DNA of 64,000 nucleotides from Lingula anatina (taxonomy: Eukaryota > Animalia > Brachiopoda), in the NCBI GenBank assembly GCA_051362555.1, contig CM120641.1:37764401-37828400 (forward strand), given 5' to 3'. The notes below the pieces were generated by a model. The model worked only from the letters and a program-made list of their open reading frames with translations, searched no databases and had not been told where the DNA came from. Shown here one piece after another: positions 10,856-59,140 of this stretch (its first letter is position 1; each line of letters starts with the position of its first letter). Both the position numbers and the translations under genes were made by a program.

Positions 10856-12174
10856 TTTGTTTTGATACACATAACGCGTGTAAAATGCTTCTGTTGCAGA
10901 TGATCCGCAGTATAGATATGCATTGTTTTAGTGAGAATGTACAGTGCAAATGTAAATCTTATCCTGTGTTGATAGTGATAGTAATGACTATCAATAATGA
11001 ACGCTATATTTACACTGTCCTATTTGGGTAGATCCAGTGCGCTCACACAATAAGCTGAAAATATTTTTGGATAATATTTACGCACATACTGATCATTGTA
11101 CGGTCAGAACAACTGCATGTGTATATCACCAATTTGTTGCGATGAACTAGGCCAACGTTATTTCTATAAAACAAGAACGACAACCTTATGTTCCAAACCT
11201 TGTTTTTCATTTTGGTTTTTAAATACGTAGAAATGTATGACCTATATATATATATATGCTACAGCTTTACTGATAAGCATTTCACATTGGTTTGACACCA
11301 TGTTTCAGTATCATCATCATCATAACTTTTGGCGAACGATTAATAATAGAATGACACTGAATCATTAGACATATATATATACTTGAACTTGAATAATCTG
11401 TTAATTTCAAATATCTTATAAGAGCAGTCACGCATTCCCGGCCTCAGTTTAGTTTTACTCTGGTTTAAAACATGGGATAGAAGGAACGCATGTGATATAT
11501 AGGTTTACAATTGCAGGAACAGGTTTGAGAAACTTCAGATTGAAACCCGACAGAGTCAACAGATTTCTTACAGCAATACTGCTATGTTTCCACTACACTT
11601 CACCAGTTTGATTACACAGTCCTCTTCAGAACGAAAATTTCAAATGGTTACACTTTTTTCAAAACGTAAGGGGAAAATATTTGAAAAAGAGAAAAATACA
11701 CCTATATCACTTAGTTTTTTATTTTATTTTTTATTCAGAATCGTAAGAATCTTACCAAGACCGTAGTACAAATGTGTATAGAACTCCTTGACCTAAAATT
11801 CAAGAAGTTTCAGTTTCATTGTATCATTGACCTCAGTAATAGAATCTTACAGCGTCATATTATATTGAAAGTGACAGCAAACCTTATATTTATGAGACAG
11901 CCTTATGTCAGGTACAATTAAAATATTGTAAATCATCATTAACCTAAAAAGAGTTATACTTGTCTACAACCATAGAGACACTATACTAAGTGCTTTGCAC
12001 GCTACACGGTTCTCTTCCCTTGTTAGTGTCGTTTAATTTATTGGGCTATAAACTTATTATTTGTCATGCCTTGGGATTCATTAAAACTTTTGATTTATAT
12101 AAGATATAGCAAGCGGTAAATCTGGATATTCTTCCTGATAAGGTTTGGGGTGAAACAGTAGATATTGGAAAACA

Positions 12175-35800: not shown

Positions 35801-38800
35801 GTAGGGCACAAATCTCGTGACAACTGCAACAGAGAAATGAAGGAAAAAAATCACAAACACAGGAAATCTGAAAAATAGACAGAGAACACACAAGTGAAAT
35901 GGATACATCACATCACATCAAAAGAGAAGCCACAATGATCAAGGATAAAGCGCAAAAAAATATGTATTTTGCCCACTTGATTGTTCCATCAAAAAAAGGA
36001 CACCCCAAAATGTAAAGATAATAATTTTTGGTTCTTTCATAATTATCATACATTTAAATGAAGAAAAAAGGGAAGGTAAAACAACTGAATTTTGTTGATT
36101 TGTTCTTTAAATATAATAACAATTTGAAAAATATTTTTCTTTGAAGATTGGTAGTTTCATGAGACAAACTGCTAAATGTCCTGAAAACAGATAGGGAGTG
36201 ATGCATGCTGTTACTACGAAAGGAGAATGGGTGCACAAAAAAGTGAACAAGAATTACAAAAAAAAAAACATCAGTGCACTTCTTGGACACATTTCCATTG
36301 GTGAACCCGCACATATCTGGCATCCCCACGCTGGCAGTGAGGGATAGAGAAACAGAAGAAGTTATACAAGGCATTCAAAACCAGAGAATATCACATCAAC
36401 ACAGTGCATCATCCATGGCAGCAACAGCACACAGTGATTGCAGTCAATGCTGAAGAGAATGGGGTTTGGTGGGGGGTGCAACACTGGGTGGAGCTTTTTA
36501 CCTGGTGTTTTCACCTCGTTGGGGATAATGCAACGGATGAAATGAGGCTGAGTGGTACCCAAGTTGATCATCAATTTGTTCAAGCTTTCCTGTAATCACA
36601 ATATCTCACGTTAGTTATATAGTTAGGGAAAAAAACGCTGCAAGGGAATGAAGGCTGAAATGTGAAATAAACATAGGCTAATAGTGGATAAATATTAGCA
36701 TGCTTTCATTTCATTGATAATCAAATCAACCTCCTTTCAAAATTTTTGTGGGAGTTGGCTATTGCTACATTTGTATCTTTACATTTGATTTCTGCAGATA
36801 CATGTATTTCAACAATCATAAGATAAATGCTAATATATCGACTGTCTGATTTCAACTAAATATACTAATTTGCTTTCATTTGAACCGCTCCTTCCCATTA
36901 TTCCTAACTGCCATGTCTAACAACTTTTCAATATTTTTTTCTTTTTCAAACTAGAATATGACCAGATTCTTACCCTGTGAGTGGCAGAGATGGTGTGGAA
37001 AGCGCTACCCTTCTTCTTCTTCTTTGGTGCAGCGCCCTCTGCAAATAGCACATTTTATCAAAATTATAAAAACTCATGAATAAATACCATAACTCAAGCT
37101 GAATTGATGAAATATAGAACAAATGAGTCTTATCACTGAATAAATTTATACAATTTAACTTCTGGATGTGAAACCATATGCTACTTACCCCATCTTTAAA
37201 GCAGTAAAAGTAAATCTTTTCTAGAACATGTATTTCTGTTTAATATTTTAGTTATGAAAAAAAGAAAATGTTATATATCTAAGAGCCTACAATAAGCTAA
37301 ATTATGATCAACTACATCTAAGTTACTGCTTGAAATTATATCAAATGAAAATCAGATCTTAAATTATAGAAGCTGACGAAAATTAGACAGAACAGAACAA
37401 GACAAGCTTTCTAGATGATTACATAACATGAATAGAACAAAACAAAACAGAACAGACATATGTTGTACAAAAATGGATACATCAGACAGATATGGAGGAA
37501 AATGTGGTATGAAGGTGAAGGTTGTAGAAGGTGAATGTATGTGGTGAGCAAGTCTGGGAGCAAGGGAGAGGCAGACGACATCCCTGGTGTACAGGATCTG
37601 AAATATAAACTGGAACAGGCGTGAAGGAGATTGGAAAAAAGGAGAGGAGTTGGAGATAAAATGGAATACTCTTGTGGATGGAATAAAGTGACAAAAGGGA
37701 AAAAAACAATGGAAGGAACAATAAGGAAAGCTGCAAAGAAAATGATATATTTGAAGACTTTTTAAAACCACATGGTAGAACTGAAAGTTGAACCTTACTG
37801 GAATAGGAGAGGTGATGGGAAATTTAGGTAGTAGGAATTTCACACATTAGTGGATCTAGAATCCACTGTCTTGGATAGAAATGTGGTAGGTGAAAGTCAC
37901 ATTTTAACAGGATACATGGATCTTGAGGGAGGTTTTGGTGAATGGGTTAAACCTGTGAATCATGGGTACAGTGTTCTTTCCCTTTAGCTCTGAGTGTTGG
38001 TTTTGATAGACAAGTTTTAAAAATAAAAAGTATTTTGTATTGCATGAAGCCTACTAAAATCATAAAAATAATTCCCTTTTTCTTTCCTTTGTTTTTGATA
38101 AATAAATCATCATAAGCTGAATAGCAAATTATACACATTAGTTAAATTGAAAAAAAAATTCAATGTTTAATAAATAATGAAACAAAAAAGGCATTCCAAA
38201 AGTTGCAAGCTGCTATAGCCATTGCTGCTGTCACTGATATTGTTTCCATGCCCCTTACTGTTACCTTCATCATCATCTATTCCAGCAAACAATTGTGCAA
38301 CAGTAGGATCTTTGGATTTGCTGAGGACATGGTAACAAGTAACATTCACTGGATCTTTGTTCTTTTCCAACCACCCACAAATGTTGTAGGGCACCTAACA
38401 GCCACCATAGAATTTTATCATTACATGATTTCACAGAAATCTGATGAACAAACTAGTCTCACTGATAGCTTAGCTTTAAAATGCTGTTTCCAAGTATTCC
38501 ATTCTTTTTGAATTATAAAAGTTGACAGTAAACACAAATTTCACTGTACCCATAGTAATAAGCTGTAAAACAAAGAGGAATCAAGGTTGAATTTCAAACT
38601 AACTACATAAATGGTAATGCAGTCTGGTGTGGAAAAAGGAAGATGTACAGGAGGAAAATTCCGCTTTCCATCATGGTGGATTAGGTTAGGGTTGATCACG
38701 GGATAGTGCCTTCTTACCAGGCTCCTCTGGTTCAGAGAACAAGAATGCAACAAGATGCTCCTTGGAAGAGGCAAGGAGACCAATTACGGTTTCATTCAAT

Positions 38801-41800
38801 GGATCCTTGTTCTTTTCCAGCCAGTTGGTAATATTGTAAGCCACCTGATTGTGAGAAACAAAGCATGTCAATAATGCCACTGTATATTGTGTACAAATTT
38901 AAGTGCTCCTCATTTGTGTTTTGCATGATGAGGGCCAGATATTTTGTGCCTCCAGGGCTTAAAAAGGTAAATGCAAAAAAAAAAAATAACTTGGTGAACA
39001 AGTTATACCCATGGGTCTGGTCAGCAAAAAGTACCTGGAATATAATGTGTGGAGATGAGTCCCAAGTCAAGGGATGAAACAAATGAAAGATGAATAGGAG
39101 TGTGTTCAACATACAACAGATGGAAGTTTTACCTCCGCCTTCAGGCTCAGCAAACAGCGTTTGTACAAGAGGTTCTTTTGCTTCTTGGAGAAGAGAGACA
39201 ACAGTGTCATTCACTGGATCTTTGTTCTTTTCCAGCCAATTGCAGATGTTGTAAGGCACCTGATGTAACAGCAACAAACTCAGGTTTCTAAGGAAGTTCA
39301 TTAGAAATACAGCTGCACACAAAACCGAAATACAAAACACAGGAGAACATGAAGATAAAAAGAAGACTGCTGAAATTTGTATTAAACTTTGCTTGCCAAC
39401 ATGCCTTTAAATTTGTACAAAATATGTTACAGTATTACAGTTTCCTCACTGGCATGGTGGGTTTAGAATTATGTCAAATTTACACAAAAGCAAATATAAG
39501 CAAGCAAAGTTTTCGAAGTTAAAATCTCTAAAATCTATAAAGTCAAATAATTAACCAAGGAAAAATACAACACCACTAGATGGTAAATTCTACCTCTAGC
39601 TGTAATCAACTAATCTTTGATTGGTTCTCATATTCTTATTTTAAAAGGCCGAGAGAAAACAAAAAGCAACATCATCAAAAAGAGCAGATTTCAAATCAGA
39701 ATAGTCAAATCACTGACAACAAGGTTTATGTGTATTCCTCTACAGCTAGTACATGTATGATTAGCTGAAATAAATTACAAATGTTATCAGTTATTGGTGA
39801 AGTGATCATCTTCTCTAGACAGTGGTAGTAGTAGTAGTAGGTTACTGCATCTATGTCCTGCTACCTAATATCCCAGAGATTACCTTCCTCATTGGCACCT
39901 GAGATAAAGACATGTGATATGATATGGTCCTTGCTTCTACTTAGAAGTTCAATACAGCCCTCATTGAGGGGGTCTCTGTTCTTTTCTACCCAGCCTTGGA
40001 TACTGTATGGTACCTGAGGGCATCACAAAAGCATGCATGCACACACACACACAATGGCACCATGTAGCAATTCTTTAAATCCCCAATGGTCTGAATTAAA
40101 TTCCAAAAGTGTCCTAGAGTCTTCAAGTTTTTTAATGATATGTCTTAATTAAATACTAGTATTAGTTACCAGTCCTCTGAAACATTTCAAAACAACATCA
40201 TTTAAGTGTTTTGAGGTTTTCTGTTTATAAAAAATTCAAAATAAATTTTTTTTTAATGGATATACAAGTACTTTGAAAAAAAAAAAAAAAAAAAACAAGA
40301 GTATCAACTTACAGCACCAGCATAATGGTACAACTCAAAGTGGGCCTCGTGCTTCCTGTCCTTGGATGGCTTGGGTTTGCCAAAGTTTGGAGACTTGCCC
40401 ATGTGGTTGTTGTACAGCTTGTCCTTGAAGGTGTCATCAGAGGCCTTGGGGAACATGCACTCTTCCTCAAGGATGGACAAGATACCCATGGGCTAGAAAG
40501 GAGAGAAAAGGGAAAAACGTTGAAGAGCCAATGCTTCAGACCATACTTATCAACAAATGCATGCTGTTTTTCATATTTCACAACAATAGATTGCTAAGAA
40601 CTGCTTTGATCAATTTTCTCAAGTTATAACTATGTAGTACAATTTATGATAAAACTCACCTTCTCAATAAGGTCGATACAGGCCTGCAAGTCCATACCGA
40701 AGTCAATGAACTGCCAGACAATACCTTCCTTCTTGTACTCTTCCTGCTCCAGTACAAACATGTGGTGGTTGAAGAACTGCTGCAATCTCTCATTGGTGTA
40801 GTTGATGCACAACTGCTCAAAGGTGTTGAACTGAAAACCAAGGAGTTGCAGAATGAGAAAGATAAAACAAAGTTGTCCTTCGATTGAATTTAGCTGTTTA
40901 ATGAGAGTACGTAAGTTGATTGTGAAAAGTAAATAAATAATTAGCTCTCAGTAGAAATCAAAACACACATGAATGCAATTGCCAGTTATAATGATACTAT
41001 TCAAAAGTTGAACTTGTCAATTTACCTCAAAGATCTCAAAACCAGCAATATCCAGTACACCAATGAAGTACTGTCTCTTGTTCTTTGTATCAAGAGTCTT
41101 GTTGACACGCTGGACGAGCCACTTGAACATACGATCATACAGAGACTTGGACAGGGCACCCACGGCATATAAGACCTATAAGTTATAACAGTAGCAAGTC
41201 AATAAAGTGTTGTCAGCGGGGAAAATCAAAGCAATCGTGCCATGCATCATGTAAAAATCTTATAAATATGGAAAATTTACATGCGCTATCAAGTTTGAAA
41301 AGTCTGGAAATTCATAATAACAAAATTTAGCTTTGTTGGCATCATGCTTATGAACTTAATGATTCTTATTTTCATTACAGCTTTCTGCATGCTTTTAAAC
41401 ATATATAATCCAAATTTAGTTTATATGAAAATATTGCATTTTAAAATCGTACTTTTACAAGCAGCAAAGAAATAGAATGACACACAAAGATGCTGAGGAA
41501 GATGTTCAAAGGAAAGGTTAGTGACACAGGTGACTGTATAGCCTTCTATACCCAACAGTTGAAAGGTAGAGTGACAAAATTGTGGTAAGGAAAACTCTGA
41601 AAGGAAAAGGTGGGATAAAACACCAAACCTGACTTTGACTAAAATAAGGAATGGTAAAATATGATGAGGTGAGGTGAAAAATATACTTCTTCCTGGTAAA
41701 GTATGGAGTACAGGTTAAGGTATGATTAACAATGTGGGAGCTTTGAGTTTAACAATTTTGACAATAGGAAAAGTGAAATGGTGAATTCATAAATATACTG

Positions 41801-44800
41801 ATCTTGGAGTCATACAGGAAAGGATAAAACAATTGATAGGATGAAAGGGAAAACAATCTTCAATGGAGTACCACATTTCTTTAATGGGGTATGAATGAGA
41901 CGGCATATCCATGGTGATGGGTGGCTGGAAAGAAGAAAGAACCAGTAATGGCTACCTTCAAAGGAATGACTGGAGAAGGTACAAAGTGGTGAGAGGGATT
42001 TGGAAGGAATTGCAAATGGGTTTGTAGAGGATGGAGAATAGACTTGTGAACAACTGCAATCCACAATCTCTAGGTTCTGGTTGGCAGCAAGGTAGTGGGA
42101 GGGTGGACACTGCCTTGATGAGAGGTCACACCTCTATACCTGATTCAAGTTTTGACCCTTGGTCACAAATTCATTTCCGACTTTCACTTTGGGCTTCAGA
42201 AGGCATTTCAATAAATCACCAGCATTCACACCAAGTAAAAATGCTGCTTTTTCAGCCTCTAAAAACAACAAGTAAGAAAAGCTCAGTCATAAGATGTAAA
42301 TGAAAATGAAATTAAGAGTATAAAACTTATAAGACAAAACAAGTTTTTAGTATCATGCCTACAACTACAGAACATTGTACCTGAGCCAATGTTTGACCCT
42401 TGGTGACAAATTCATTGCCCACTTTCACTTTTGGTTTTAAGAAGGACTTGATCAAGTCACCAGCATTCACACCAAGTAAAAATGCTGCTTTTTCTGCCTC
42501 TATTGTAAACAAAAAAATGTGGTTGAGATATTTCTGACATTAGGACAAGTCTTCCTTTTTTGTTGATGATTTTAAAACTTTACTATAAAAATAACACTGA
42601 ATGAACTATAAAAAATCTTTCATTATTTTACTGGACAAGAATGAATAAATTAAATAAAGAGGAAATCTGGCACCTGGAAAAGTGTATAATTATTAGCAAG
42701 AGACAATGTCATACAGTACATGACATAGGGTTGTTTTTCTACAATAACATAATCTTTTGTGATATCTTTTAATATTTTCTGAATTTATTAAGAATAACTG
42801 GTTCTAAGTTTGGTTTAACATTTACATTACTTTTTTTAAACTTCTTCAATCTTAGGATTTTATAGAAAGCAGACAAGTTTTGAAAAATTCAACATCTGTT
42901 TACCTGCAGCTCCATCAGCCTCGGCCTGCTCCTCACGTGGCCTCTGTTTGAACTTCATCTCACCAAAGTGCAAGATGGCAGCTGTGCACTTGTACAAGCT
43001 CAATTTCTCCTCTGGTGTGAAGCCCAGCACATCAAAAGCTTCCTGTTGAATCAAAATAAGGCTGGTGTGAAAGTAACTAAAAATGATTGACATTTTGGAA
43101 GTGTACATTAAATCCATTATCTAAATTACAGTATATACAGTATATCAGAAAGGGTTGTAGAAACTTTTTAAAAAAAGATTCACTTACATCAGTGATTTTC
43201 ATCTCTTCTACATCATCAATGCCATCTACTGTCAAGACACCCTGGTTGATAAAGCTGTAGAGCCCAGCATCAGGAGAAACCAGCAGCTTTTCTGTTTAAT
43301 TAAAACATGAGGCAAAGCTAATTAGACAATGAACTTTGCTGGAAGCCAACAAAAAACAAAAAAGTACACACTGTAATTGCAAATGTATGGACTTTTCAAA
43401 TCCTGAGCATCTTTTCTTGTTTACACGAAACTATGCTAATTACAGTATCTTATTTAATACAATAAAAAATCAATTGAAATTTTTGAGTTTCATTTTTTTT
43501 TTTTTTTGTAAATCCAGTGGGTGCCTACATCACCACTTCTAACCTGAAATCAGAGCATTTCAATTGATGCCACAATCTCCACTCTCTCATTCTCTCTCTC
43601 TCTGGCATATAACACATTATTCTAGTTTCCTCACATACAGTTAGTAAAGATTATATACAGAAGTATACATATTTAACTGAATAAAATAAAATAAAAGATA
43701 AGGAAGGGGATCATGCAGTTCACTTACCTGAAATCCTTTGCTAAGCAGTTAAAAGTTTTTTTTTTCAGAATATTGTTATAACCTTATCACCCATCTAATT
43801 AATTTCCAATATCAATTAAGATGTATGAAATTGTTATTGAAGAGATATCAGTGAGATTTGTTTTCTAAATTGCTACAACCACAGGAAAAACCCACAACTA
43901 AACTTTATTCCAAGTCCCAATTTTTGTTAAGCAGAGTAGAGTGTCTATATAGAGTAAACCTTCTGACCAAAGATGAGTCTCTAAATTGAGAGAGAAATAG
44001 CTTAAGCTTACTGGGGTCATATCATCTTACCCACAAATCCATCAAATGCCCCAGAGCATAACTGGTAAAATATGTGGTAATTCCTTTCAGCTTTTTGCTG
44101 ATAAGTCACCCTAGATTTCTCCAATAAATCTGCAAAATTGTATATCAATACATTATAGTACCAAAGACAAAAACTAACATATCTGATCTACTTTATTGGA
44201 CTTACCCATGTAGCTGGGGAAAGCGTTTGACAACAGCTGGTAGAAAATATGGTAGTCACGCTCAGCTTTTTGTTGGAAGATCACACGAGACTTCTCTAAT
44301 AGATCTAAATGAGAGATCAAACAGAGGTTGAAGAGATGAAGGTTGAGGGACAAAAGTGAAGGGAAGAGGGGATAGGGGATGGGAATCAAATAAACACTTT
44401 CCAGCCTGTGGGCCACTAGATCCTGGATACTTGGCATCCTTCACTCACAATATCTTTTTTGAACTCACCTGCAAGGTCTGGCAATGAGTTACACAGAAGC
44501 TGATAGAATATGTGGTAATTACGTTCTGCAGACAGTTGGAAGGTCACACGAGATTTCTCCAGCAGATCTGTGATATAGTAATATAAATTTTTGCTGATGA
44601 ATCATTTCACTTGAATTCAATGTTTAGAAGGGGTTCACAAACCACAGCAAGGCAGCATCTTTCCACGGCAAGCCTTTCATGCATTTGGGTATCTCACTTC
44701 AGATGTTGGTAGGTATAATTACTGTACTCAAGGGTAGGTGCATATTGTCACCATTATCATAAGGGTTTAAATAATAAAACATAATATTATTGGTGCTATA

Positions 44801-47800
44801 TAAAACCATGGTGAGAGATGCTTCTATATACCTAGGGTAGGGTGTGCCTTACTCAGCAAATATTCCACAGGTTATATATATACATCAGGTGATAGGTTCT
44901 GCCAGCTGACTGGTGTGATCACCAGAACTGAAGAAGACCTTAATTGACAAATCAAATCATAATACTCTCTGAATCACACACCTCAGGGCAAACACACCAG
45001 AAAGACTCTGGGAGTGCCAATGGTAAAAGAAAACTGTGATAACTCAAACTTGGGGGACAAAGAAAAGAGATTACCAAGGAGAAAACTATTCTACAGAGTC
45101 AAACTAGTGAATGAAGTTAAAGGGGTACAGAAATGTCAAAGAAAAAAAACTATATAAAGTCAAACAATTGGAGAAAGAAGAGAAGTGGATAAGTAAAAGG
45201 GTATGATTCCCAATGCAGGTCTTGGGGTAGGTACATGTAACATAAGTATTTAATTCTACTTCTACTTCACTATAGGTACTTCAATAAACAGTCAAAAATT
45301 TACATCTCAAAGTAATATGCTATAGTAACTTCTATAGTAACTTTAATTATATATGTTGACAGAAAAATGTTACATTTATGTGTAATTATTTAATAAAACC
45401 TAGAAATATTATCAGTTGATCATGATTGTTTATTTTTTTACTCCATACTTACAATGCTCAATGTCTGCACCAGCAATTTTACCCTGGGTACCAAAGTGAA
45501 TTCTGATGAATTTACCCTACAGGAGAAGACAAATAAGAATTTAAAAAAATGAACACAGATTTTAGTGCATCACAAAAAAGAAATAAAAACATATTTTGTA
45601 ACTGTACATCTTACTTGCTTGTTCAACAATTTCCACAGGATTTCAGTTAAAATATTCCACATACTAAATGACAACCCTGAATCAGTTCTCAAGAACAATG
45701 AATGACAATTACTTGAACATAAAAAATAAACCATTTAAAACTAATAAAAAGAAAGACAAAACCAAGAGGACAACACAAGATGTTTTCTTCAACGTGATCT
45801 GTTCACCACAAATAATTGAATTCTGCTGCATCAACTCTCACCACAAGTAAAATATGAATCATATCTACATTTTCAGAAACACTCGCCAAAAATGCAATCT
45901 AGACAAAAAAATGCTACCTATATCACAGCACTGCACACTAAAACAAAATCACCAATTAAACTATATTTCGAAATAGGTAGTGATGTAAAACTTGTACATG
46001 TATATTTATACCCATTTACATCTATATCACTGCAAACTCTAAAATGAAACACTACTGTTCTTAAATATGAATGTGCTTCCATTCATATGGTCTAAAAGGA
46101 TATCAAGCAAGAGGTCTGTATAGAACTGGTAGCTGCTAGAAATATAATAAATCTTGAATAAGGTGACTTGATTTGAATTCCTCATTCATATCCCCAAATC
46201 AAAAATTGTGTGACCACTGAAGTAATCTAGCAACTACTAGGTCCTGAGCAGGGGTACTCACAAATCGAGAAGAGTTGTTGTTTCTGATAGTCTTGGCATT
46301 GCCAAAGGCCTCAAGCACTGGGTTGGCTTGAATAATCTGGTCCTCTAAGTTGCCTCGCTGGAATGGCACACACATGCAAGGGAGTGAGAAAAAGTAAGAA
46401 AAAGAAGAAGGCAGTACATCTCACACGTGACACATAAAAAAAAACAAAAAAAAACTAAAAATCATCCATGCACTGTTCTTCATCTTGCAGCTTCCATTTG
46501 AGGTTTGAATAAGAAGAGTGGCAGCTGAAACAAAGATGGAGGGTTGACCTGTTTGAGAGTACAAACAGCAAATATGGTGGCAAGATGGTGCAGAACACGT
46601 CTATACTCCAGTGCATGCGGGAAGGGACAGGATACTCCCTCTACTTACAAAACGTGAAGAGTTGTTGTTACGGACGGTTTTGGCATTTCCATAGGCTTCA
46701 AGTACAGGGTTAGCCTGCACAATTTGGTCCTCAAGTGTACCCTATAAGATTTGAGTAAAATGACATTGAGATGTTTGTAAGCCATAATAAAACAACAAAG
46801 CAGATAAAGCTAATAAACCATTCTAAAAGTACTTACTACATAAAAGAATTTTTACAAAATTTTAATTCTAATTTATGTGTTTATTTTCCTATATGGTTCA
46901 TGGTATATACCTTTCAGACGAATAAGAACAATAATGAGAATGAAATGCACATAAAGTGTAAACATTTTTCAATTGAAGTAAACCATGTTATCAGTATATA
47001 AAAAAATAGATAAAAGCATAAATCAGTGTTACACTATCACTCCATTGCTAGAGGTAAAAAACATAGGGAAACAGTAGTGATAAAATAAAACAAACATATA
47101 CCTAAAATAGAAAATATACCATATGCAAAACAACCACTAGAGTATTATATATATATATCATGATCTGTGTATCTAAGGAGTCAGACAGTCACAAAGGAAA
47201 AGTAAGGTGGTAAGTGATTAAAAAAAAAACAACAAAACACTATTAACTACAGGTATTCTTCTCCATCATGCAAGGTACAGATGTACATCCAGTAGATGAC
47301 AATTGAGGATTTTCTGGTGAAGCAATGTAGAAAGTATCTTCCAGGTTCAAAGTAATAGGAAAGACAGTGAGGCACACAGACAATATAAAGAGAAATACAC
47401 AAAACTGTGATACCAACAAAGGTTATATAAACTGCATTTTGGGATCATACAGTACAGGAGACAACAATGTGGGAATAGGTGGTGAACTGGAAATATCAAA
47501 CAGAAAATTAGGATGGAAACAAGACACAAGTGGGAAGACACATGCTTGACCACTCTCCAATTTGCATTCCTTTCTACCTTCTTCTTTCCTTCTTCAGCCT
47601 CTGCGGTACCCTCTTTCTTTGCAGCAGCAGCGGCCACAAAGGCAAAGTACTGGATTACTTTCTTCGTGTTCTCAGTTTTTCCAGCACCAGACTCACCACT
47701 GATTTTAAGAAAGATAAAAAAGTCAAACATCTAAGTTACATCAAAGCGTTAACAGACAGGACATAGGTCCGTCTGAGCATTTTTTTGTTTTGGAATCCAC

Positions 47801-50800
47801 TTTTGTGACACTCCCCATATCTCATCTTGGGAACAATCAAAAATGTTTCCCAGTGTCCTGCAGGGAGCTTCAAAAGTAGTTTCCATCACATGGTGGCACT
47901 CTTATTGAGGCTACTGAGGACACTTACGGTATCAAGGGGAGAGTCTTTAGTCTTTCCAGCTCTTGCAACTTGTGCGAAGTACTGAATTACTTTCTTGGTA
48001 TTTTCAGTTTTGCCTGCTCCCGATTCCCCTCTGGATAAACCAAAGGAAACAAGACAACAGTAAAACCCACAATTTATCCAAAAAATTACCCTAAGCCACA
48101 TTGTGCAGTGAAATAACCAGCTTGCATTCATTAAATGGTTACAAGAACACTGATAGTTGTAACTTTTCATAAAAATTCAATTAAAATTTAATACATCACA
48201 AAACTAGGTCTGTCCTAATGTGTGTCAGCAGTGTTATTGGCAATACTTACGTAATCAACATGGACTGGTTCTCACGATCTGTGGAGGAAAAGAGAAGGTT
48301 CCAGCATTAAATTAAAGGTGCAAATAGACACAAAAATGGGTTTGTTTTCTAAAATTCTAGAGTATTTCTTTTTACTTTAACTTAAAAAAAAAAAAAACAA
48401 TTTGGCTTTTATTTTAGCTTGAACGAATACCAGGACTCCACAAGACAGGTGCATCTCCACTGATACAGTAAAGTGATGTTTTTTTCCTTTTAATCTGAAA
48501 ACTCTTCAATTTGACATGAATCTTTAATCCTTAGAAAGCATGACATTAAATGTTTCAACCTTTATCGCTCTAGTCTTACAATTAAGAACCACCTGAAAGA
48601 GAACATTTAAATATCACAGTTGAAAAGGTTATATGGTAGACAGTGCAGGCTACATGCAAGGGTTAGAATAATGTTAAAATAACCTACATTCTAAATAATT
48701 ACATTGAAGACTTGAATTAAACATTGTAAACTCAAGTTCATTTAACCTGCTTAAAAATGCATCCACCTATGACATTCACTTACCTTCCAACATGTTTCTA
48801 TATGTATTATCTGTGATTGCAAATATATGGGGTGGTACTTGTGAACGCTTTTTGCCTTGGTATTTCTCAATTACGGCTTTTGTGTAGATTGGGAGCCATT
48901 TGTAAGGGTTGACAGTTACACAGAATAGTCCAGAGAAGGTCTGCAAATAGTGGGGGTGAGGAAAAATGATGTTATAATATGGAGATGAAAAACTGTTACC
49001 TGTTCAGTTTTTCTTTGACTTACCACACTTGGAATCCTTTTCCTTTATGATGTGTCCAAGCCCATACATTTTGAAATTTTGCATGCAAATATACACAAAT
49101 ATTACAACTCAAGTTGAGTATACCAGAGTTGCATATATTTGGCAAAAAAAAAAAAAAAAACTGAAGCAAAAAGTATAACGCATAAAGCACATATGGACAC
49201 AACATGTCACTGGAACAAATACTCAATAACATACCTCCAGAGAGGTATAGACATAACATTAACACAAGACAAAAACATAATGTATAACATGCAAGCAGGA
49301 TGACGAGTATGAAAGGGCCTAGACGGACATGCATTTAGGAATCCCAGACTAATCTGTAATTTTGCAGCATTGGATAGCTGTTAAAGCCTCTAATTTGGCT
49401 AGAAATTTTAAAAACAATTACATTTCCTAATATCTAAAAAAGGCCATTCCTTTGACATGCCCTGGCACTGCATTGGCTTCAACCAGTATTCTTCAGCAAG
49501 AGTTTGGGAACATAGTAAAGTTAGCAATACAAAGACAATCACATATGCAGCTACACAAAAACCTAATCTGTAGAGCAGATATAACAATGGGCAGCACATG
49601 GAGCAGAGAGCCAGAAAATAATGTATCCAGTTTGCCATTTGTGCGCTTGTCTATTAGCTGTCAGAACCTGCCATGCAGCAGAGTTTTAACATTTCCCACT
49701 TCTCAACGAGAACTCTGTTGACTTACTCTGCAGCATGTTGGTATATGCCATATCACAAATGGCATACACATGAGGTGGCATGGAACTTCTTTTCATTCCT
49801 CGAAATTTGGCTATAAGTTCCTTAGTATAGATAGGTAGCCATCGATAGGGATTAATTGTAACACAAAACAGTCCCGAGTAGGTCTGGAAAATAATTAGTT
49901 AGGGGTGCACTAAATTAGTAAGAGAACAGAAAACAAGAAAGGTATCTGACTACAAGAAGTGTGGTAAACAATACAAATTACCTGAAGATGCCCTAGTATC
50001 AGTGGAAACTGATTTAAGGCCTTAATCTTCACGGTAATAGACAAAAATGGATGCAAGTGGGGTAAATATGGGGGAAACAGAGAAATCAATACCAAGTCTG
50101 GAGCTCTTTGACTATAAAAGTTTCATCATAAATTGGTAAAATACTAATTGTTGAATTTTTTATTTTTTTATTATCATTATTATTATTATTTTTTTTGTCA
50201 CACTACAGTAAATGAAACTCCAAACTGGTAAGCAACAATGACAGTGAATTGAAATCTTCAATGAGAAGAGCTCACTGAAATAGAAGACACTTCAAAATAA
50301 AACAACATAGAGTTAAGTTATAGAATCACACAGCAACTTGTGAGAAGGGTGCAGAAAGTAAAATTTCAGAAAAAAAACTCGATTATGTATATGACACAGG
50401 TGACAAAGGTTTTTTAGGGTTCAGTGATTTGTGGGGTAAAGTCCTATACACTGAGACTGAGGAGTAAAGATGCTGATGTTGGGTCACACGGCACTGCAGG
50501 ATCTAAAAGAGAAACTGGATGCAACAGAAAGAAAAAACACAATTGAGTGTTGTACATATAGGGAGGTGGGGAAATGCAAAGGGGTGGGGATATATTCATG
50601 CTGTAAAACTCAACCTGCAGCATGAAACAGCTGTCTCTCTCCTGGCTCCTGGTCTTTTACTTACTCTGAAGCATGTTCTGATATGCTACATCACAAATGG
50701 CATACACATGGGGTGGCATTTGAGAGCGTTTTTGGCCCCTGAACTTGTTGATTACACTCTTCTCATAAATAGGCAACCTCTTGTATGGGTTAATTGTTAC

Positions 50801-53800
50801 ACAGAATAGTCCGGAATATGTCTGAAAAGGGGGTTGATATGAGGAGAAATGATTAGTGGTGTTTCAATAGGTTGGTTATGATGGAAAATTCAACACACAA
50901 TGAGAAAATGAATTAATGGTAAGTGTGAAAATGAGACCCCCTCCCAGATGATTCATGGATAGGGACATCTAATAGTCTATTTTCAAGTAATACCCTTGAG
51001 GAATATAAAAAAATTCAGATATTTTTTGGTTAGATATAATGGTTATGTCTACAAATAAGATTTTTGTTGTTTTTTTAAGTTTGTAATTGGTTAATACAAA
51101 AGATAATGAAAAATGACAATTTTCCGGATATTGGTTAGAACTTGAATTCATGGGAAAATTGGTAAATGGTTAACCTAAAAATTGTTTTGTTCAAATTTTG
51201 TCAGATGTTCTAGTTATTTCACTAAATTATCTGATAAGATTTCTAGAAGGTGGTTATAAACTACGCCCAAACACATTGCCTAGAATGCTAGGTCTTTTTA
51301 CCTTGCAACATTACTGAATATGCACCATCACATATTGAATAAAGATGGGGTGGCATTGCACTTCTTTTAATTCCTCGATATTTTTGAACTTTGGCCGCAT
51401 TGTAAATTGGTAACCACTTGTAAGGGTTGACTGTGACACAGAACAACCCTGAATAGGTCTGGAATGAAATTTAATCAACCCATATTTAAAGAAGTCTGCA
51501 AGCCTCAAATGAAATCTATGGAGCCCATACTGAATAATTCAACAAATCTCAATGGGATTTTTTTGAAAATTCATTGAAGAATTGAGATACTGGTAGGTCA
51601 GTGGGCTTTATCAGGCCAAATCAATGAGAGTAAGATGATGATATGAAATGATTTTAGATCTTTGATGAAATGATGTTGACATGCCAACCTGGAATCCTTA
51701 CCTTCCTACATCTTGTACAGTGTGTACAGGCACTTCAAATCAAGAGGATGGGGAGGGGGTGGGTAGAGACTGACACACTGTCTCAAAAATATAAAAAAGG
51801 TTGAGAAAAGGGACATTGGATAACTTCTAGTTCTTTTACATCTAGATACTGGTTGGATATTCATGGATTGGTATAAAAAATGGAAACAGTTCACAATAAA
51901 AGGATGGTGATGGATGAAAAGGATTTGGATTTGGTTGGAATTAAACACTTGTGAAAAAATCGGGGTATCAAAAAAAAAAAATGTATAATATACATATGGT
52001 TTGAATGGAGGATGCAAGTCAAGGAGTGTTGAATACCACACTTTACCTTGCAACATGTTGCAAAATGCGAGATCACAGAAAGCATACAGATGTGGAGGCA
52101 TCATGGTCCTTTTCTGATTTCTATACTTTGCAACAATCTCGGGTGTATAGATAGGCAGTCGCTTGTAAGGATTGATAGTGATTGTGAAAAGTCCGGAGTA
52201 GGTCTGAAAAGCAAATAAGGTGACACGGTCCCTTTAGAAGGGTTGATACACACCAAATGGAGGACTCCATTACCTCGGACTGAGAACCTGAACCTTAAAT
52301 GAGAAGACAAGGGTAGGGGTGCTTACATTAGGCATGCAGTGTTGGGGAACTGGTATTTTGGGAAAAGAAAAGAACAGTAGAAAAAAGAAGTGATGGTTTC
52401 AAGGTGACCTTGTTTTGGGTTCTGGTGGTTGATTTGGTAAAATACTTGTTGGTTTTATCGATATTTGTTGGGTAAAGATAAAGTCATGGTTGGTTATTAT
52501 CTGAAAATTTTGACCAAATACTTACCATCAGACACTGAACCATTCCTTATCACAATATAATATAATACCTAGTTTGTTGAACAGGAATTCTGCTCAAAAG
52601 ACTTGAAAAAAAAAAGGGTGTGCTTTCACCTGGGAAATGTGCAGGGCATTTGGTGGAACAGGAGAGTTTTTTTCAAAGGGTATGTGGGAATTTGGACATA
52701 TTTTGATATGGGGCACTGAAGTAATAATGTCAACCAATAAGAGAGGGTTTTTCAAAAGGTCTTGGGATACTCTCATATTACCTCTCAGCATGTTTTGAAA
52801 TGCCTCGTCACAAACGGCGTAACAATGAGGTGGCATTTCAGTCTTTTTCTTGAATCTGTATTTGTCTACGATGCTCGGGGTATAGATTGGCAGTCTCTTA
52901 TAGGGGTTAATGACTATACAGAATAGTCCAGAATAAGTCTGAAATACAGCACAAACAGCCATGCTACAGATATTTAAGACAATACATATGTACTTCCATT
53001 AACATTTCATACAGTAAAAGCTAGTAAGCTTACACTAATTATCAGCTCTAAAAGCACTGCGGAAATGTTTGCTACATGTAAAAATTGCATTAAATGCACA
53101 GAACATCATGTAAAGTGATAATCAAAAGCTGTACATGTAATATTATTGCATAGAAAACATTGAAAAAAAGTTCATGCCTGCATTTGCTACTTTAAGCATA
53201 TTATATTCACATATACTGTACATCAATACAGAAACGGCTTATAACAAGAGTAACAAAGTTCAATACAATATACATGATTACAGACAACTATCATGCACAT
53301 ATTTACTACATGCTAAAAGATTTTTCTACAAGTGCAACTTTAAGTGTTGATGCCTCCATTGCAAAAGCAGATAGAAGTTAATATTTTTTTTTAAATCCAT
53401 CTTGCATATTGCATAAGCTTTGCAGCATGTCAATTCATTGTTACAGATTCAATTTAGATTTGTCCAAAATCATAATATACGATAATAGAAAGATTTCCAG
53501 TTGAAAAATGGCATTATAAAGGAACTAGACATTAATATGCAAAAGCTTTTCTTTTTTCTGCTGTGGAATAAGCATCTAATCAGAATATGCACATCCAGAG
53601 TTTTGTAAGCACACAAAAAATGCAGCCAATGTTAGTAATCAGGAAAAAAATCATTAGCCCCGGTGGGAGATAATAACTAAATACCCCCAAAAGAAATCTG
53701 CTTTGTTAAATTTACCATTTGGGTACCACCAAGGGGATGTGGGCTACTTCAAATATGGTATCAGAAGTTGGAAAGTGCTTTAAAACCTGGTATTTGTGTA

Positions 53801-56800
53801 GGAGGGGATCCTATTATGGTGATGTTGGTTCATGGTGGGATATGGAAAGTGGTGCATCATCTTTTTGGCTTGGAAATAAAACTGAAAACTGGTCACCATC
53901 ACTGCAGAAAAAAAAGGTAAAGTAAAAGAACTGAGAGAAGAGGAAGAGAAATAAAGAATGCAGGACATCTTGGGTAATAATGAATGACAAGAAGGTAATA
54001 AAATGCATGATACAAATCTTATGAATGACTTGATCCATGATACTGAGATCCAAGTCAATGATAGATAATGGGAGGATATAAGGATGAGGTTTTATCTTCT
54101 TTGGAAGGGAATAAAGACACTGGCATGGTAGAAAATTTTCTAACAACTTGCCAGAAAAAAAAACAAAACAAAAAAACAAAACAAACAAACATGAGGAATA
54201 ACTTTGGGTTTGATGGGATAGGTTAAATGTGACGGATAACAGGCATGGAACTGCCTTGGGTTTTTGGAATTGTTATCTCCTGTCAGGTAACTGAGTTAAA
54301 TTCAAGGCTAGTATAACAGGTAATTTCAATATATGAATCAGGGTTTGGGGGAATATGGGAAGGTATGATGAATGGTATGTGAATGACATGGTGATGATTT
54401 AATAAAATAAATATGGTTTAACATGGTTCAAAATGTCATATCAGAAGGTTTGCCAAATTCCACAATAACACTACAATTAACAGCATACCCCTGCCACTTG
54501 AAATAACATGGTATGATTGCCAACTGAGACAAGGCTTTAGTTTTTTTCCCCAAATGGCCTCCTTCTGTTATGAATACAATTGAGCAGTTTCTTTACTTAA
54601 CCACCAGTCAATAACAGCCACATTTCCATTTTTCTGTCCATTTTTTTTCAACAAGTTATTCAAACTGACCAGAGCTTTCATAATGCCATTAAAATAATCA
54701 AGTAAAAAATTTTCATGTAATTACATATAAACCAGCAAACTACAGTATATACACACTTTAAAATGATTATCCCACTGGTTTGGTTTTCCAAAACCAGAAG
54801 AGCTCTGTATGTAAATGTTACCTATAAATTTCATTTCATTCTTTGCTAGCCTAGCAAGACTTGGAAAAGTAGCCAACTTTAAATGCTTTCTCAGGTTCTG
54901 TGTGCTATGTTAAATTTGGACAGGATCACACAAATAGGTGTGTAAATATCAAGCTATTTTAAGGTCACATGTCTTGTTTGAAAAGCTTTCTTTAAATTTC
55001 TCCTGCAAATGTTTAATCATCAAAAATTAAACAATCTAAGCAGAATGCACATAAAAAGAAGAAACGGTATTAGCATGTGCTTTCTGGGTACTCTTCAGGC
55101 CACCTTACAGCAAAAAAAAAGGGGGGGGGGTTGTACATTGTATATTTGCTAATAACATTTTATCAAAGGAGGGCATTTTTAGTTTTAAAACACATTCTTT
55201 TCTTCATTTTTGATGCTGTGGAATTCTAACATCTTACACCTATCAAATTATTTTCTACCTTGAGTCTGTCATTACAATTTATCATATGAAGTGAAATAAG
55301 CTTGTAATCTTAACCCCCAAACCAATGACTTCAATAACAATCCATGAAGAGAAAGGTGTGTTTACATGACTCTATTAGCTTGGACTTAAATGAAAGCATA
55401 TTCCTTGCTATGAAGTCAAAATTCCCTACTCGAGTTACATTCAATTCAATAGTTCTCTTTCACTCTAGGTGTAGCAGAGACAACTGAAGCCAAGGGTGGA
55501 AGTGCACTGAATGGTCTAATTTTCCGCAATTCATTGCCTCATTAACCATGGTCAATTAACCTTGTTTGTTTGTAGTCACACCATACCAAGTTCAGGCTAA
55601 TAAATTTGTCCAGGTCTGACAACCTGACATGCACTGGTCAAATAATTTTTAGGTGCAAATTTTTAGCTACATATCTAAACTGAAGACATTTTATACTAAA
55701 TGTGTGTCATGTATCAGAGGCGCTGTAAGTAACAATTTGCATTAATTAATCAACAGTGAAATTTTCAAAACCTCCCCTCTTCTTCCCAAATCTCTGCAGA
55801 TGTAGAGTTTGGAATGCAATTTTTATTACTGAAGCTTTCTTTCATCTGTAAGGATAGCTCCCCCACCTGGGCAATGTTTCCATTAGCAAAATTCCCTCTA
55901 TATATACTACACTGATTTCTTCTTCCCAGGTGGACATATATGGCATCAAAGCTTGTGTTATTTATAGGCTAGGTTGTTATCCTATCCTGCAGTTGCCAAT
56001 CACTGCAAAGGTGAACAGACCCATTCTGAAAGGCATGCTGATCTCCAATGTTGGGATACTGCTTCAAAGCTTAAGTATTCTTATTTATCTCTATTGTTCC
56101 ATAAGGACTTGATAAAATCAATTGTTTTTAAAAATGTTACAAATAGTACATGTATCTTTCAAAACAAGAAATGAGACCCAGAAAAAAAAAACGCTCTATG
56201 GATAGCAGGCACAAGTTTGATGTATAGGTAATTAAAAGGTGCCAAAGTTAACAACTCTACAGGTAACCTATTTATATGGGGCTATATGAGACATTTCCCT
56301 GTTCACAATCAGTAGCACTTAACCACACCTGCTTCAGCAGGATGCAGCATATCTGTTGGTCTAACCCCTTCCTGCTGAACACCTGATCACAGCAAGACCT
56401 TTTATGGTGTTTCCCCAGGTCAGACAGGTAGAGACCAAAATATGGAGGGCATTCGGCTGTGTATAGCACACATGTATGCCCATACCATGCATATAGTCTT
56501 ACCATAGGCTCTCATCCAGGCTCTACTGAGGAGTCAATTTACTTCCATCAGCATTGGAACCTGAGCCTTCCCAAGATAAATATTTCATATTAGTCAGAAC
56601 ACACACTCTGGGATATTCAAACAAACTCTTTCCTATGGAGCTTTTGAAGCAATGTAGTAAATATGACAGGTCAACAGTGTTTGTGCTTCTCATTAAAATG
56701 TCTGTGGATTTTTATATACCCCAAGTTAAATCCATTCAAACCAGCTTTGAGTGACAGTTTCAAATCAATTATGTGAAATAAGAGAATTCTTCACTATAAA

Positions 56801-59140
56801 CTCTTACAAAAACATCCTCTACATGTTTGATCCTATGCAATCAAAATTTGGATAGCAATGATATATTTAGTTGGGGCATCAAAAGTTCACTGTGTAAGCT
56901 TTAAAGAAGAAACCAGAAACTGCAGCTCTATCCTTAAAGCTTGGGAATAAAAGTCATATGGCTTATCTTTCATATAAAAATCAAAATTTGTCTTTAACTC
57001 AGATGTTCTCTGTTAATTAAGCTAACCCGAGCTGGTCAGAAAGGCTTCAAATGCATTTATACTTGCTCTAGTCAGTTTTACTTTTAAAACCAGATAAACA
57101 ATGGCTTAATGGTTGTCTATTAAATTCTCTCTGTGCAAGAGAACAATGATAATGTGTACAAAGGATACTGATCAAAACCACAAGAAAGGGGAAGTAAACA
57201 CAAGTGACTTGACTGGAGGTAAATAAAGGAAATCTACTCAGGTATAATCTACATAATGGCAATATAAATCAACTAAATATGATGTATAATAACATAATAT
57301 TTGTTTGATCCACATATAACTGAGGTGCCAACATGATCATAAGGAGGGCGGGCTAAGTAGGTTGAGGGGTCTCTTTAACTTGGAAACTGACCATGAAAAA
57401 GGGCCAGGTTTCCAAGCTAAAGAAGAGTGTACTTTTCATCAGAAGGTGGGAATATTACAAATGTGCATTTTATCCACATCTCCTGTGCATCCTTCATGCT
57501 TGAAATGATCCAGTACCCGGGTTGGTGCACTAGGTATAGTAGGTTCAAATAAAATCACTCCAGGTGAGAATTCCTATTCCTGGGAAAAAACTTCAGTTTC
57601 TTTTTTGGAATTGGGGTTTTTCTTACTTACGTAAATGAGAGTTGCATAATATCTTGCTTTCAAATTGTACAAAACTGAGGCATCATTTAAATAGGTCAAG
57701 TTGGCAATATCCTCATATTTTTCAAACTTTGGTGGATTCATTTGTTGAATATCATCTTTCTTAACTGTGACGATCTGTAATGTAATGCAAAATAAACGTT
57801 ACAACTCATAATGAATAAAAAATTTAATGAAATATTTGTTTGATACTTACATAGATCAAGTTTGAATAGTATCTATCTTTCAGGTTCCATAACACACTGG
57901 CATCATTTAAATAAGTTAGATCTGCCATGTCCTCACATTTTGTGAATTTGGGAGGGTTCATTTGTTGAATGTCATCTTTCTTCACTGTAACAATCTTTGA
58001 AATCAAGAAAATAATGTGTCAATTCCACGTATCTAAAAAAAAATTTATCACAACTAATATGACGTGTGGATACATGTATAACTAATTTATATAGTAACTA
58101 TCTTGGACAAAAAATGGAAAAAAAACTTTAATTTTATCTAAATAATAAATGAGGCAGCAAAAATCTAATCAGATACATTTTCAGCTTTAAAACACAATAA
58201 CAACCCTGTCAACGCCAAAAGCACCTTTATCTAAAAAATGACAATCTATATTTTCTTTCATTCATACATGTGTATGGAAAAATGTGTATGAAAAAAAAAA
58301 CTTTCATTTTATCTAAATAATAAATGGGCCAGCAAAAATCTTATCAGATACATTTTTCAGCTTTAAAACACAATAACAACCCTGTCAACGCCAAAAGCAC
58401 CTTTATCTAAAAAATGACAATCTATTTTTTCTTTCATTCATACATGTGTACAGGGTACCTACCCAGCATCTGCAAATTGGTGGTCTAAAAACAATACAGT
58501 TACATAAAACAATGCATCCCTCAACAAAATTAGATGCTGTTAAAATATCTCATTTGCTACATAAATTTTCAGACACTTGAAGTTGGAAATATGTTGTCTT
58601 TTCTTTCATTTTAAAACCTTGTTTTTCACAACATAGTGACATTTTTTCCAATGCACTTATCTTCATCTGAGAGAATAAATAAATTTCCATAACCATTTTT
58701 TTTTTTTTTTTTTTTTTGTCAGTATGGACTGAGAAAAACAGAAAACAGAAATTTAAGGAGAACTGCCTATTAATTCTACACCATGTTGCTGATGGTTTTT
58801 CATAGCCAATAAGCTAGTTTCTGACATCCTCACAATCAAAATTTCAGAACAAATGTATAGGCAAATTGCAATTGTCACTTTCAATATAATATCATATTAT
58901 GTATCGAATTATACAGGCTTAAATTAAAATAAAAAGATTGCTACTCACGTTGCCGTCATTCAGTCTTACAGTTACTTCATCCCCTTTAGTGCTCTGGATT
59001 TCGGCTGCCATGAAACCCTCCTTTTGGTGGGGCACCCAGCAGTTCTTCTTACCGTCAAACGGCTGGGTCTGTTCCTTCTGCAGAGCCTTCTTGTCGATGG
59101 CCAGATATTTCATATCTGGATCATTCGGATCGTACGACAT
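18636..59140 (-). CDS. Mhc: Striated-muscle myosin II heavy chain, ~1,950-1,990 aa per isoform, 38 coding exon positions with extensive alternative exons
   Basis: Constitutive exons (-): 59140-58949, 48278-48251, 45516-45453, 43291-43188, 43042-42904, 41175-41026 (DIAGFE switch II), 40830-40660 (relay), 40492-40313, 37038-36974 (loop 2), 34959-34842 (SH1), 34669-34412 (converter/IQ), 34188-34107 (WQWWKL), 33105-32926, 32705-32502, 32285-32076, 31825-31680, 31516-31426, 28085-28029, 27453-27367, 26318-26152, 24872-24627, 24347-24151, 23904-23555, 23399-22966, 22799-22671, 22513-22142, 21966-21766, 21524-21360. P-loop GESGAGKT and switch I NNNSSRF lie in alternative exons. One full path sums to 5943 nt in frame. 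Confidence 0.97.
25166..25633 (-). CDS. Mhc: Mhc mutually exclusive exon pair, S2/LMM rod hinge
   Basis: Two 79-nt exons with identical phases: 25633-25555 [26 protein letters not shown] and 25244-25166 [26 protein letters not shown]. Confidence 0.9.
28298..28780 (-). CDS. Catchin/myorod-type internal alternative first exon (161-aa unique Ser/Thr/Lys-rich N-terminus fused to the distal rod)
   Basis: Open frame from ATG 28780 ([12 protein letters not shown]...APGLKNMLE) to a GTAATG donor at phase 0, matching the next exon [14 protein letters not shown] (28085). Size and position fit molluscan catchin. Confidence 0.85.
33262..33432 (-). CDS. Candidate second internal first exon of Mhc (57 aa, acidic), would yield a full-rod headless myosin
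   Basis: [57 protein letters not shown], then a GTAGGT donor at phase 0, in frame with the VKPLL exon at 33105. No transcript evidence. Confidence 0.5.
35559..36589 (-). CDS. Mhc: Mhc mutually exclusive exon pair following loop 2
   Basis: 88-nt exons 36589-36502 [29 protein letters not shown] and 35646-35559 [29 protein letters not shown]. Confidence 0.92.
38265..40013 (-). CDS. Mhc: Mhc cluster of four mutually exclusive exons leading into loop 2
   Basis: 40013-39884 [20 protein letters not shown]..., 39259-39133 [20 protein letters not shown]..., 38844-38718 [20 protein letters not shown]..., 38394-38265 [20 protein letters not shown]... Lengths are 130/127/127/130 nt, all phase 0 to 1. 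Confidence 0.92.
42140..42499 (-). CDS. Mhc: Mhc mutually exclusive exon pair (cardiomyopathy-loop region)
   Basis: 119-nt exons 42499-42381 [40 protein letters not shown] and 42258-42140 ...[27 protein letters not shown]. Confidence 0.93.
44031..44567 (-). CDS. Mhc: Mhc cluster of three mutually exclusive exons (LLEKSRV region; Drosophila exon-7 equivalent)
   Basis: 99-nt exons 44567-44469 (..[20 protein letters not shown]..), 44304-44206 (..[20 protein letters not shown]..), 44129-44031 (..[20 protein letters not shown]..). Confidence 0.93.
46262..46741 (-). CDS. Mhc: Mhc mutually exclusive exon pair (switch I)
   Basis: 46741-46649 [31 protein letters not shown] (93 nt) and 46357-46262 [32 protein letters not shown] (96 nt). 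Confidence 0.93.
47578..48030 (-). CDS. Mhc: Mhc mutually exclusive exon pair (P-loop + loop 1)
   Basis: 48030-47928 [34 protein letters not shown] (103 nt) and 47698-47578 [40 protein letters not shown] (121 nt). Confidence 0.93.
48784..52938 (-). CDS. Mhc: Mhc cluster of six mutually exclusive 157-nt exons (TYSGLF..NPY..PPH region)
   Basis: 52938-52782, 52203-52047, 51458-51302, 50821-50665, 49883-49727, 48940-48784. All are exactly 157 nt, stop-free, AG/GT flanked, phase 0 to 1. Confidence 0.95.
56260..56450. promoter_or_regulatory. Candidate intronic muscle enhancer in Mhc
   Basis: Perfect CArG box CCTTTTATGG (56398-56407), CACCTG E-boxes (~56326, ~56380) and an A/T-rich ctatttatat element in a locally GC-richer island. 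Motif evidence only. Confidence 0.4.
57631..57994 (-). CDS. Mhc: Mhc mutually exclusive exon pair (N-terminal; Drosophila exon-3 equivalent)
   Basis: 144-nt exons 57994-57851 [48 protein letters not shown] and 57774-57631 [48 protein letters not shown]. Confidence 0.94.
58120..58450. repeat. Recent direct tandem duplication (~175-bp period) in the first coding intron of Mhc
   Basis: 'ttttatctaaataataaatg..cagcaaaaatc..ccctgtcaacgccaaaagcacc..catacatgtgta' occurs twice (~58120-58273 and ~58295-58450) with few differences. Confidence 0.93.

Follow-up and report, generated by a model that had tools for sequence, protein, structure and literature searches.

Six old tandem copies of exon 3 in a striated-muscle myosin heavy chain gene of Lingula anatina: a probable mutually exclusive cluster

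The gene for a striated-muscle myosin heavy chain (Mhc) described here lies on the minus strand of a 64,000-nt stretch of the Lingula anatina genome (assembly GCA_051362555.1, contig CM120641.1, positions 37,764,401 to 37,828,400 of the forward strand; hereafter the window, in which all positions are counted). Its third exon is present in six intact copies (a-f), and this array, judged from the genomic sequence, very probably constitutes a cluster of mutually exclusive exons. The copies have diverged from each other more than orthologues from different phyla have, and through most of their past all six evolved under purifying selection, although one of them may have been silenced recently. A single copy is likely to be used per transcript, and on balance we favour, by a modest preference, the prediction that the choice would retune the coupling of the nucleotide pocket to the converter and the lever, and not adenine binding.

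The six copies are flanked by slot 2 on one side and by exon 4, which is single, on the other (Table 1). Each of them is exactly 157 nt long, is preceded by AG and followed by GT, is entered in phase 0 and left in phase 1, and is free of stop codons. The initial annotation had described six paralogous 157-nt exons with intact frames at 48784..52938, and the coordinates, splice sites, phases and frames bear it out. The peptides quoted there were also correct, as was the equal split at residue 130 (residues are numbered as in MYH7, i.e. alignment column + 115), where copies a, b and d have Arg and copies c, e and f have Trp; the TYSGLF start given for all copies holds for five, copy f beginning with TFSGLF. 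The peptide of copy a aligns to residues 114-164 of the scallop myosin S1 and to residues 116-166 of human MYH7. Homologous exons of the same frame, phase and length, neighbouring each other internally between common flanking exons as these do, are what characterizes a mutually exclusive cluster at the genomic level.

In pairwise comparisons the copies are 52-81% identical in amino acid and 60-69% in nucleotide sequence. Protein and DNA profile searches of the window returned exactly these six and no seventh or decayed copy; with nhmmer their E values ranged from 1e-42 to 6e-47, while the next match had an E value of 0.52. The introns between the copies are 480-786 nt long. For 13 of the 15 intron pairs the local alignment score did not exceed the maximum of 30 shuffles, and for the other two it was above it by 1-2 points. 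Since the introns are unrelated and the exons differ to the extent given above, the copies are not assembly duplicates. The reading frame was followed through all 64 subsets of the six copies. It stayed open with any single copy (6/6) and with none of the 57 multi-copy combinations, in which stops appeared at codons 175-195; skipping of exon 3 led to a stop at codon 120.

Among the six copies pS is 0.57-0.84 and dN 0.22-0.40, and dS is 1.1-3.1 in 10 of the 15 pairs and undefined in the remaining five. In a simulation of neutral copies, which ignored indels, frame and splice sites remained intact in 1.5-2.8% of the cases at 0.5 substitutions per site and in 0.3-0.5% at 1.0. The codon model of the six copies gave an lnL of -917.4 at omega=1 and of -851.3 at omega=0.1, thus omega=1 was rejected; omega is left without a point estimate, since under synonymous saturation the likelihood is flat below about 0.1. 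Because omega=1 is rejected and the synonymous sites are nearly saturated, the six copies must have been kept by selection. This agrees with the old, selectively retained duplications proposed from the sequence beforehand. The GC content at third codon positions (GC3) is 0.42 in exon 3 as compared with 0.64 in the single-copy motor exons. Across 59140-34107 (minus strand) GC3 is 0.43 in the alternative motor exons and 0.64 in the single-copy ones.

The six copies share on average 33.8 of 52 residues with each other. The mean for 22 lophotrochozoan orthologues is 40.5, and when sextets were drawn from them at random 10,000 times, no sextet fell below 36.1 shared residues. Compared with 14 orthologues, the identity of each copy is 58-66%, while these orthologues are 79% identical among themselves. 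The single-copy motor exons of the same gene are without such a gap; slot 15a shows one.

It had been claimed correctly that the exon carries the adenine-pocket loop, since the purine-binding loop NPxxxxxxY (MYH7 126-134) lies in it (PMC12489053, PMC9859928). The further claim, that the kinetics are tuned at the purine pocket, found no support in this form: none of the six copies departs from the others at the purine contacts N126, P127, Y128 and Y134, residues 126-134 contain no residue unseen in the 22 orthologues, and the unusual changes fall at 143-168, in the lever-facing loop and helix. G144, K145 and E149 are invariant in 22/22 orthologues and have three, four and five states, respectively, among the six copies, while N160, present in 21 of the 22 orthologues, has six. 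I154 and Q163 are also among the unusually changed positions. The net charge of 143-150 is +3 in all six copies and in 22/22 orthologues, although E149 is lost in five copies; in a broader set that mixes classes, 145 of 196 segments have this charge. The paired loss of K145 and E149 in copies b-e was probably inherited once, so that about two independent events, and not five, have to be counted. Cys158 is common to five copies and is found in only one of 192 other segments, P0201 (sequences of relatives are cited by local identifiers, P for protein or peptide segments and L for metagenome loci); its sharing therefore suggests one ancestral burst. At residue 130 the copies show a real but ordinary dimorphism. 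Arg is present in 21 of the 22 orthologues, and Trp occurs in the chicken MYH7-like P0277, in Mytilus P0030 and in Globodera P0078. A switch at this position may be a second dial.

Exon 3 was constant in all 14 mollusc and nemertean isoform sets (at most 15 members listed per cluster) and in seven further sets; bivalves, gastropods and nemerteans were covered. In a metagenome scan 497 matches were confirmed and 80 loci were returned, 50 of them with a genomic 157-nt exon. Two of these, the unrelated contigs L052 and L079, have two tandem copies, eight have a single copy with both flanks, and 40 are too short to call; the loci are often redundant, and 2/50 is not a frequency. In L079, which spans exons 1-5, the tandem copies at 4045-4201 and 5872-6028 are identical at 49/52 residues, and in L052 those at 350-506 and 576-732, only 69 nt apart, at 48/52; dS is about 0.5 in both pairs. 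They have the same splice phases and are placed among annelid-like sequences away from the six (low support, 52 residues). These pairs are likely independent, younger duplications, so that exon 3 would have been duplicated more than once. P0201 is the only one of the 192 segments with the C158-D159 signature, and its grouping with copy b (ultrafast bootstrap, UFBoot, 92) suggests that the array predates at least one speciation. Word-index searches and a profile search of the full library gave P0201 alone as an orthologue of an individual copy, among the best 150 matches listed. Other two-copy records (P0197-P0200, P0497, P0498) were discarded as fish or amphioxus gene-model fusions or as near-identical repeats in non-muscle myosin models. 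The locus L057 has a duplicated exon at the cluster-5 position (10433-11232) in an annelid-like Mhc with a single exon 3.

The structural literature indicates what such changes may affect. Adenine is bound via Y134, P127 and Y128 (PMC12489053, PMC9859928), T124 takes part in the water network holding the purine (PMC12489053), and the loop moves upon ADP release (PMC9859928, PMC8735999). In cardiac myosin the omecamtiv pocket has an N-terminal wall, facing the relay and the converter, that is made up of K146, R147, N160, Q163, Y164, T167 and D168 (PMC5543065). The contacts of loop 142-153 and helix 154-168 vary with lever orientation, and the hypertrophic cardiomyopathy changes R143Q, G144D, K146N, R147S and D168N are located there (PMC11477208). 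For cardiac myosin a K146-D778 link has been put forward, by which the D-helix and Y134 would be moved onto ADP.Pi (PMC13127578). Since 143-168 has a coupling to Y134 and to the nucleotide there (PMC13127578), altered kinetics of ADP or inorganic phosphate (Pi) may still result, indirectly.

In the mechanism that we propose, the inclusion of one copy would keep the frame and that of none or several would end in early stops; purifying selection would act on the six copies, which would yet diverge beyond cross-phylum orthologues. Exclusion would be achieved by regulated exon choice, backed by nonsense-mediated decay of mis-spliced messages. [quoted passage not shown] Exclusion by steric hindrance needs a very short intron or a distant branch point. 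The introns of the array are therefore too long for simple steric exclusion; copy d has an AG-free zone of at least 117 nt, thus distant branch points are possible. When pairing of docking and selector elements was looked for in this single genome, with low power, the best candidates were matched or beaten by 2/16, 27/100 and 17/100 shuffles, and the list of inverted repeats contained nothing common to the exon-3 copies. A bolder version, which we put forward tentatively and hold to be somewhat doubtful, is that splicing acts as a six-position dial on the omecamtiv/mavacamten wall, setting lever priming and the energy-saving folded-back state for each muscle and including equivalents of R143Q (copy f) and D168N (copies d and e), and that the independent duplications in annelid-like lineages mark a site at which tuning recurs and which earlier surveys have missed.

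Several points weigh against the retuning of lever coupling. The use of each copy and the exclusivity are deduced from the genome sequence, and the structural roles of 142-168 are borrowed from vertebrate cardiac myosin. The low GC3 of exon 3 fits a minor use of each copy, and the raised dN would also follow from relaxed constraint. K146 is invariant in the six copies. N168 is not special, since the exon also ends in A in the annelid-like loci L052, L057 and L079; as a disease mimic of its own this residue was accordingly given less weight. The positional signal is modest. By excess states the p values are 0.021 for 143-168, 0.045 for helix 154-168 and 0.059 for the omecamtiv-pocket residues, by the novel-residue measure they are 0.069, 0.071 and 0.15 (drug pocket), and the lack of unseen residues at 126-134 has a p_low of 0.01 (0.10 by excess states); all of these are post hoc, from seven regions tested, and uncorrected.

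We rank the retuning of lever coupling ahead of direct tuning of the purine pocket, and the latter ahead of neutral divergence after partition of expression. If a mutually exclusive cassette tuned nucleotide binding directly, through an Arg/Trp switch at 130 in the purine loop, the clean 3:3 split at a position where nearly all orthologues have Arg would be accounted for. Trp130/131 of skeletal myosin is labelled by ATP photoprobes. T124, of the purine water network (PMC12489053), is Thr in five copies and Val in one, and the movement of the loop upon ADP release (PMC9859928, PMC8735999) points in the same direction. However, in the available text of the purine-loop literature searched, no passage was found that names residue 130 as a contact or deals with its role. 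The named contacts are invariant and 126-134 has no novel residue, two states at 130 cannot explain six copies, and Trp130 is found in single-copy genes of distant animals, so we consider direct tuning unlikely. The copies may instead be exclusive by tissue or stage, each kept because it is needed somewhere, with differences that are mostly drift tolerated after expression was partitioned. The copies are indeed roughly equidistant from the orthologues, their GC3 is low, the shared Cys158 suggests a single burst, and the young pairs of L052 and L079 differ at just 4 and 3 of 52 residues. Against this reading, the changes strike positions invariant in 22 orthologues while the loop charge is kept, and a copy-b-like exon persists in another record, P0201; we find this explanation rather unlikely too.

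That only some copies are live, the rest having been silenced recently and not yet decayed, appears very improbable. The donors of a, b and c (GTAATA, GTAAAG, GTAAAA) are weaker than the GTAAGT of d-f, and the profile score is lowest for copy b (80 bits, the others 87-101), but all six keep length, frame and AG/GT despite near-saturated synonymous sites and no decayed copy lies nearby. It is hardly credible that the array is an artefact of assembly or consists of pieces from more than one tandem myosin gene: the array is known from one assembly, but the nucleotide identities and unrelated introns given above do not fit this, and exons 1, 4, 7, 9, 10 and 12-14 are single-copy in profile searches of the window.

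The motor regions used by evolution for muscle tuning have classically been mapped by means of alternative Mhc exons, and the younger exon-3 pairs in other animals point to a repeated origin at this one. The six variants represent a natural, selection-tested allelic series on one backbone, at the purine loop and at the converter-facing wall, which is both a cardiomyopathy hotspot and a cardiac drug pocket. If exon choice does retune lever coupling, it would give the motor six settings.

The model of the gene in the window comprises 37 exon slots with an open frame of 1933 aa, which every single alternative-exon substitution keeps open. Nine slots are duplicated, i.e. 2 (x2), 3 (x6), 5 (x2), 6 (x2), 8 (x3), 11 (x2), 15 (x4), 17 (x2) and 29 (x2), so that the exon combinations formally number 4608. 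The model ends at 21360 with the terminal exon(s) outside it; several short candidate exons for the 3' end are present at 21360-18600 (minus strand). The encoded protein has an identity of 70-73% with mollusc striated Mhc and of 41% with a cnidarian myosin-10-like outgroup. It has a class II motor domain and a coiled-coil rod and groups with muscle Mhc, which identifies it as a striated-muscle class II myosin heavy chain. In a tree of 42 sequences it falls among the lophotrochozoans and belongs neither to the bivalve+gastropod clade nor to that of the annelids (support 1.0 for each); its exact branch position is unsettled in this tree, which is without named chiton, cephalopod, brachiopod or phoronid sequences. 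Judged from the sequence, this placement and the catchin first exon would point to a mollusc of another class or to a near relative of molluscs.

Table 1. Coordinates of the Mhc gene, its exon-3 copies and other features in the window
Feature	Position	Strand	Remarks
Whole modelled Mhc gene	21360..59140	-	37 slots, 9 duplicated
Exon 1	58949..59140	-	ATG, N-terminus; single copy
Exons 2a + 2b	57631..57994	-	2a 57994-57851, 2b 57774-57631; SH3-to-motor transition; Kollmar cluster-1
Exon 3a	52782..52938	-	K129 R130, F144, K145 and E149 kept, E160
Exon 3b	52047..52203	-	R130, N144 Q145, M149, L160, C163; groups with exon peptide P0201 (UFBoot 92)
Exon 3c	51302..51458	-	W130, I145, A149, G160, V164
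Exon 3d	50665..50821	-	R130, Q145, Q149, V160; final A gives junction codon N168
Exon 3e	49727..49883	-	R129 W130, M145, S149, M160; junction codon gives N168
Exon 3f	48784..48940	-	F117, W130, Q143, Q149, N160, R163, E167
Exon 4	48251..48278	-	28 nt, single copy; shared downstream acceptor; completes codon 168
Exons 5a + 5b	47578..48030	-	5a 48030-47928, 5b 47698-47578; P-loop/loop-1 pair; cluster-2
Exons 6a + 6b	46262..46741	-	loop-1 end to switch-1; cluster-3
Exons 8a, 8b, 8c	44031..44567	-	three copies of 99 nt; upper 50 kDa domain; likely cluster-4
Exons 11a + 11b	42140..42499	-	119 nt; no matching described cluster
Exons 15a-d	38265..40013	-	four copies of the exon before loop-2; no matching described cluster
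Exons 17a + 17b	35559..36589	-	cluster-9
Catchin (myorod) alternative first exon	28298..28780	-	phase 0 splice to exon 26
Exons 29a + 29b	25166..25633	-	tail hinge; cluster-11

Some of the other slots deserve mention. The pair of slot 2 is separated by a 76-nt intron between cluster-1-type copies, here in a lophotrochozoan, and the slot 8 triplet lies in a gene outside the annelid clade of the tree, its likely cluster having been described as annelid-specific. The slot 11 pair, after the loop-4 exon, is 87% identical in amino acid and 83% in nucleotide sequence and is therefore a younger duplication. The copies of slot 15 are 40-64% identical to each other, and this slot is constant in 14/14 isoform sets of relatives. 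The loop-2 exon at 37038-36974 (minus strand), at the cluster-8 position, is single, and no second copy was found when one was looked for in the window. Intron 1 contains a 176-nt near-duplication at 58118-58450 (1.9 copies, 96%). Outside the gene, a peptide transporter gene of the POT/PTR2 family is located at about 10927-6531 (minus strand), a single-exon bHLH gene (Pfam HLH), which we take to be atonal-like from its motif, at 4810-4166 (minus strand), and a 146-nt tandem repeat at 325-894 (3.9 copies, 95%). The window gave no Rfam match to a structured RNA, and none of the 10 open reading frames of at least 90 aa in 47.5-59.5 kb makes a convincing nested gene. The C-terminal stretch of the catchin exon is conserved as in mollusc catchins, by comparison by eye with the Fig. 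S3 alignment (PMC3912159).

Kollmar and Hatje described in 2014 Mhc clusters 0-11 of mutually exclusive exons across 116 metazoans, and came to the view that every cluster has an early origin, with nothing but loss or expansion afterwards (PMC3912159). Three of them were dated to the arthropod ancestor (by elimination 1, 7 and 10), cluster-4 was described as annelid-specific and cluster-8 was called the oldest bilaterian cluster; according to the legend of Fig. S2, two insects have neighbouring exons that are identical, their positions not being given (PMC3912159). The initial annotation had noted that exon 3 is not among the Drosophila clusters. Its position indeed equals that of no insect cluster and of none of the clusters 0-11 in the text descriptions of PMC3912159, the comparison being confined to these. 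The Biomphalaria isoforms vary at slots 5, 6 and 16, which are clusters 2, 3 and 8, and cluster-6 sits on the loop-4 exon (PMC2257972). With these anchors slots 3, 11 and 15 are therefore undescribed in the 2014 survey, as far as its available text goes. No published description of an exon-3 cluster was found in the literature on mutually exclusive Mhc exons of lophotrochozoans, annelids and molluscs, searched outside subscription journals and CyMoBase.

The array shares with the protostome Mhc clusters the tandem homologous exons of the same phase and length in one striated-muscle gene (PMC3912159; Odronitz and Kollmar 2008, PMC2257972). The Lingula gene is duplicated at clusters 1, 2, 3, 9, 11 and likely 4, which accounts for six of its eight other duplicated slots, and the six-copy exon falls between cluster-1 (SH3-to-motor) and cluster-2 (P-loop/loop-1). 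The large clusters described are, in contrast, the arthropod relay, converter and ATP-site-lip exons, with up to nine copies in cluster-7. As compared with the catch and striated Mhc of scallop and oyster (clusters 2, 3, 11 and catchin), where the scallop S1 provides the closest solved structures, the P-loop/loop-1, switch-1 and hinge pairs and catchin are all present, whereas exon 3 is constant in those isoform sets of bivalves, gastropods and nemerteans that were compared and six-copy here. All seven listed N-terminal-subdomain residues of the omecamtiv mecarbil/mavacamten pocket of beta-cardiac myosin are in exon 3 or its junction codon, and six of the seven vary; the equivalence is by sequence alignment, and while the drug site belongs to an exon that is single-copy in vertebrates, the wall is altered genetically here. 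In Dscam and Drosophila Mhc the choice of one of N exons is made by pairing of docking sites with selector sequences. The Lingula array likewise needs a one-of-N choice and has introns that are probably too long for simple steric exclusion, but in the low-power search of this one genome no common pairing element rose above the shuffled controls. What is new here is the presence of six old copies at an Mhc slot not described in the text of the 2014 survey, together with two more undescribed slots, 11 and 15.

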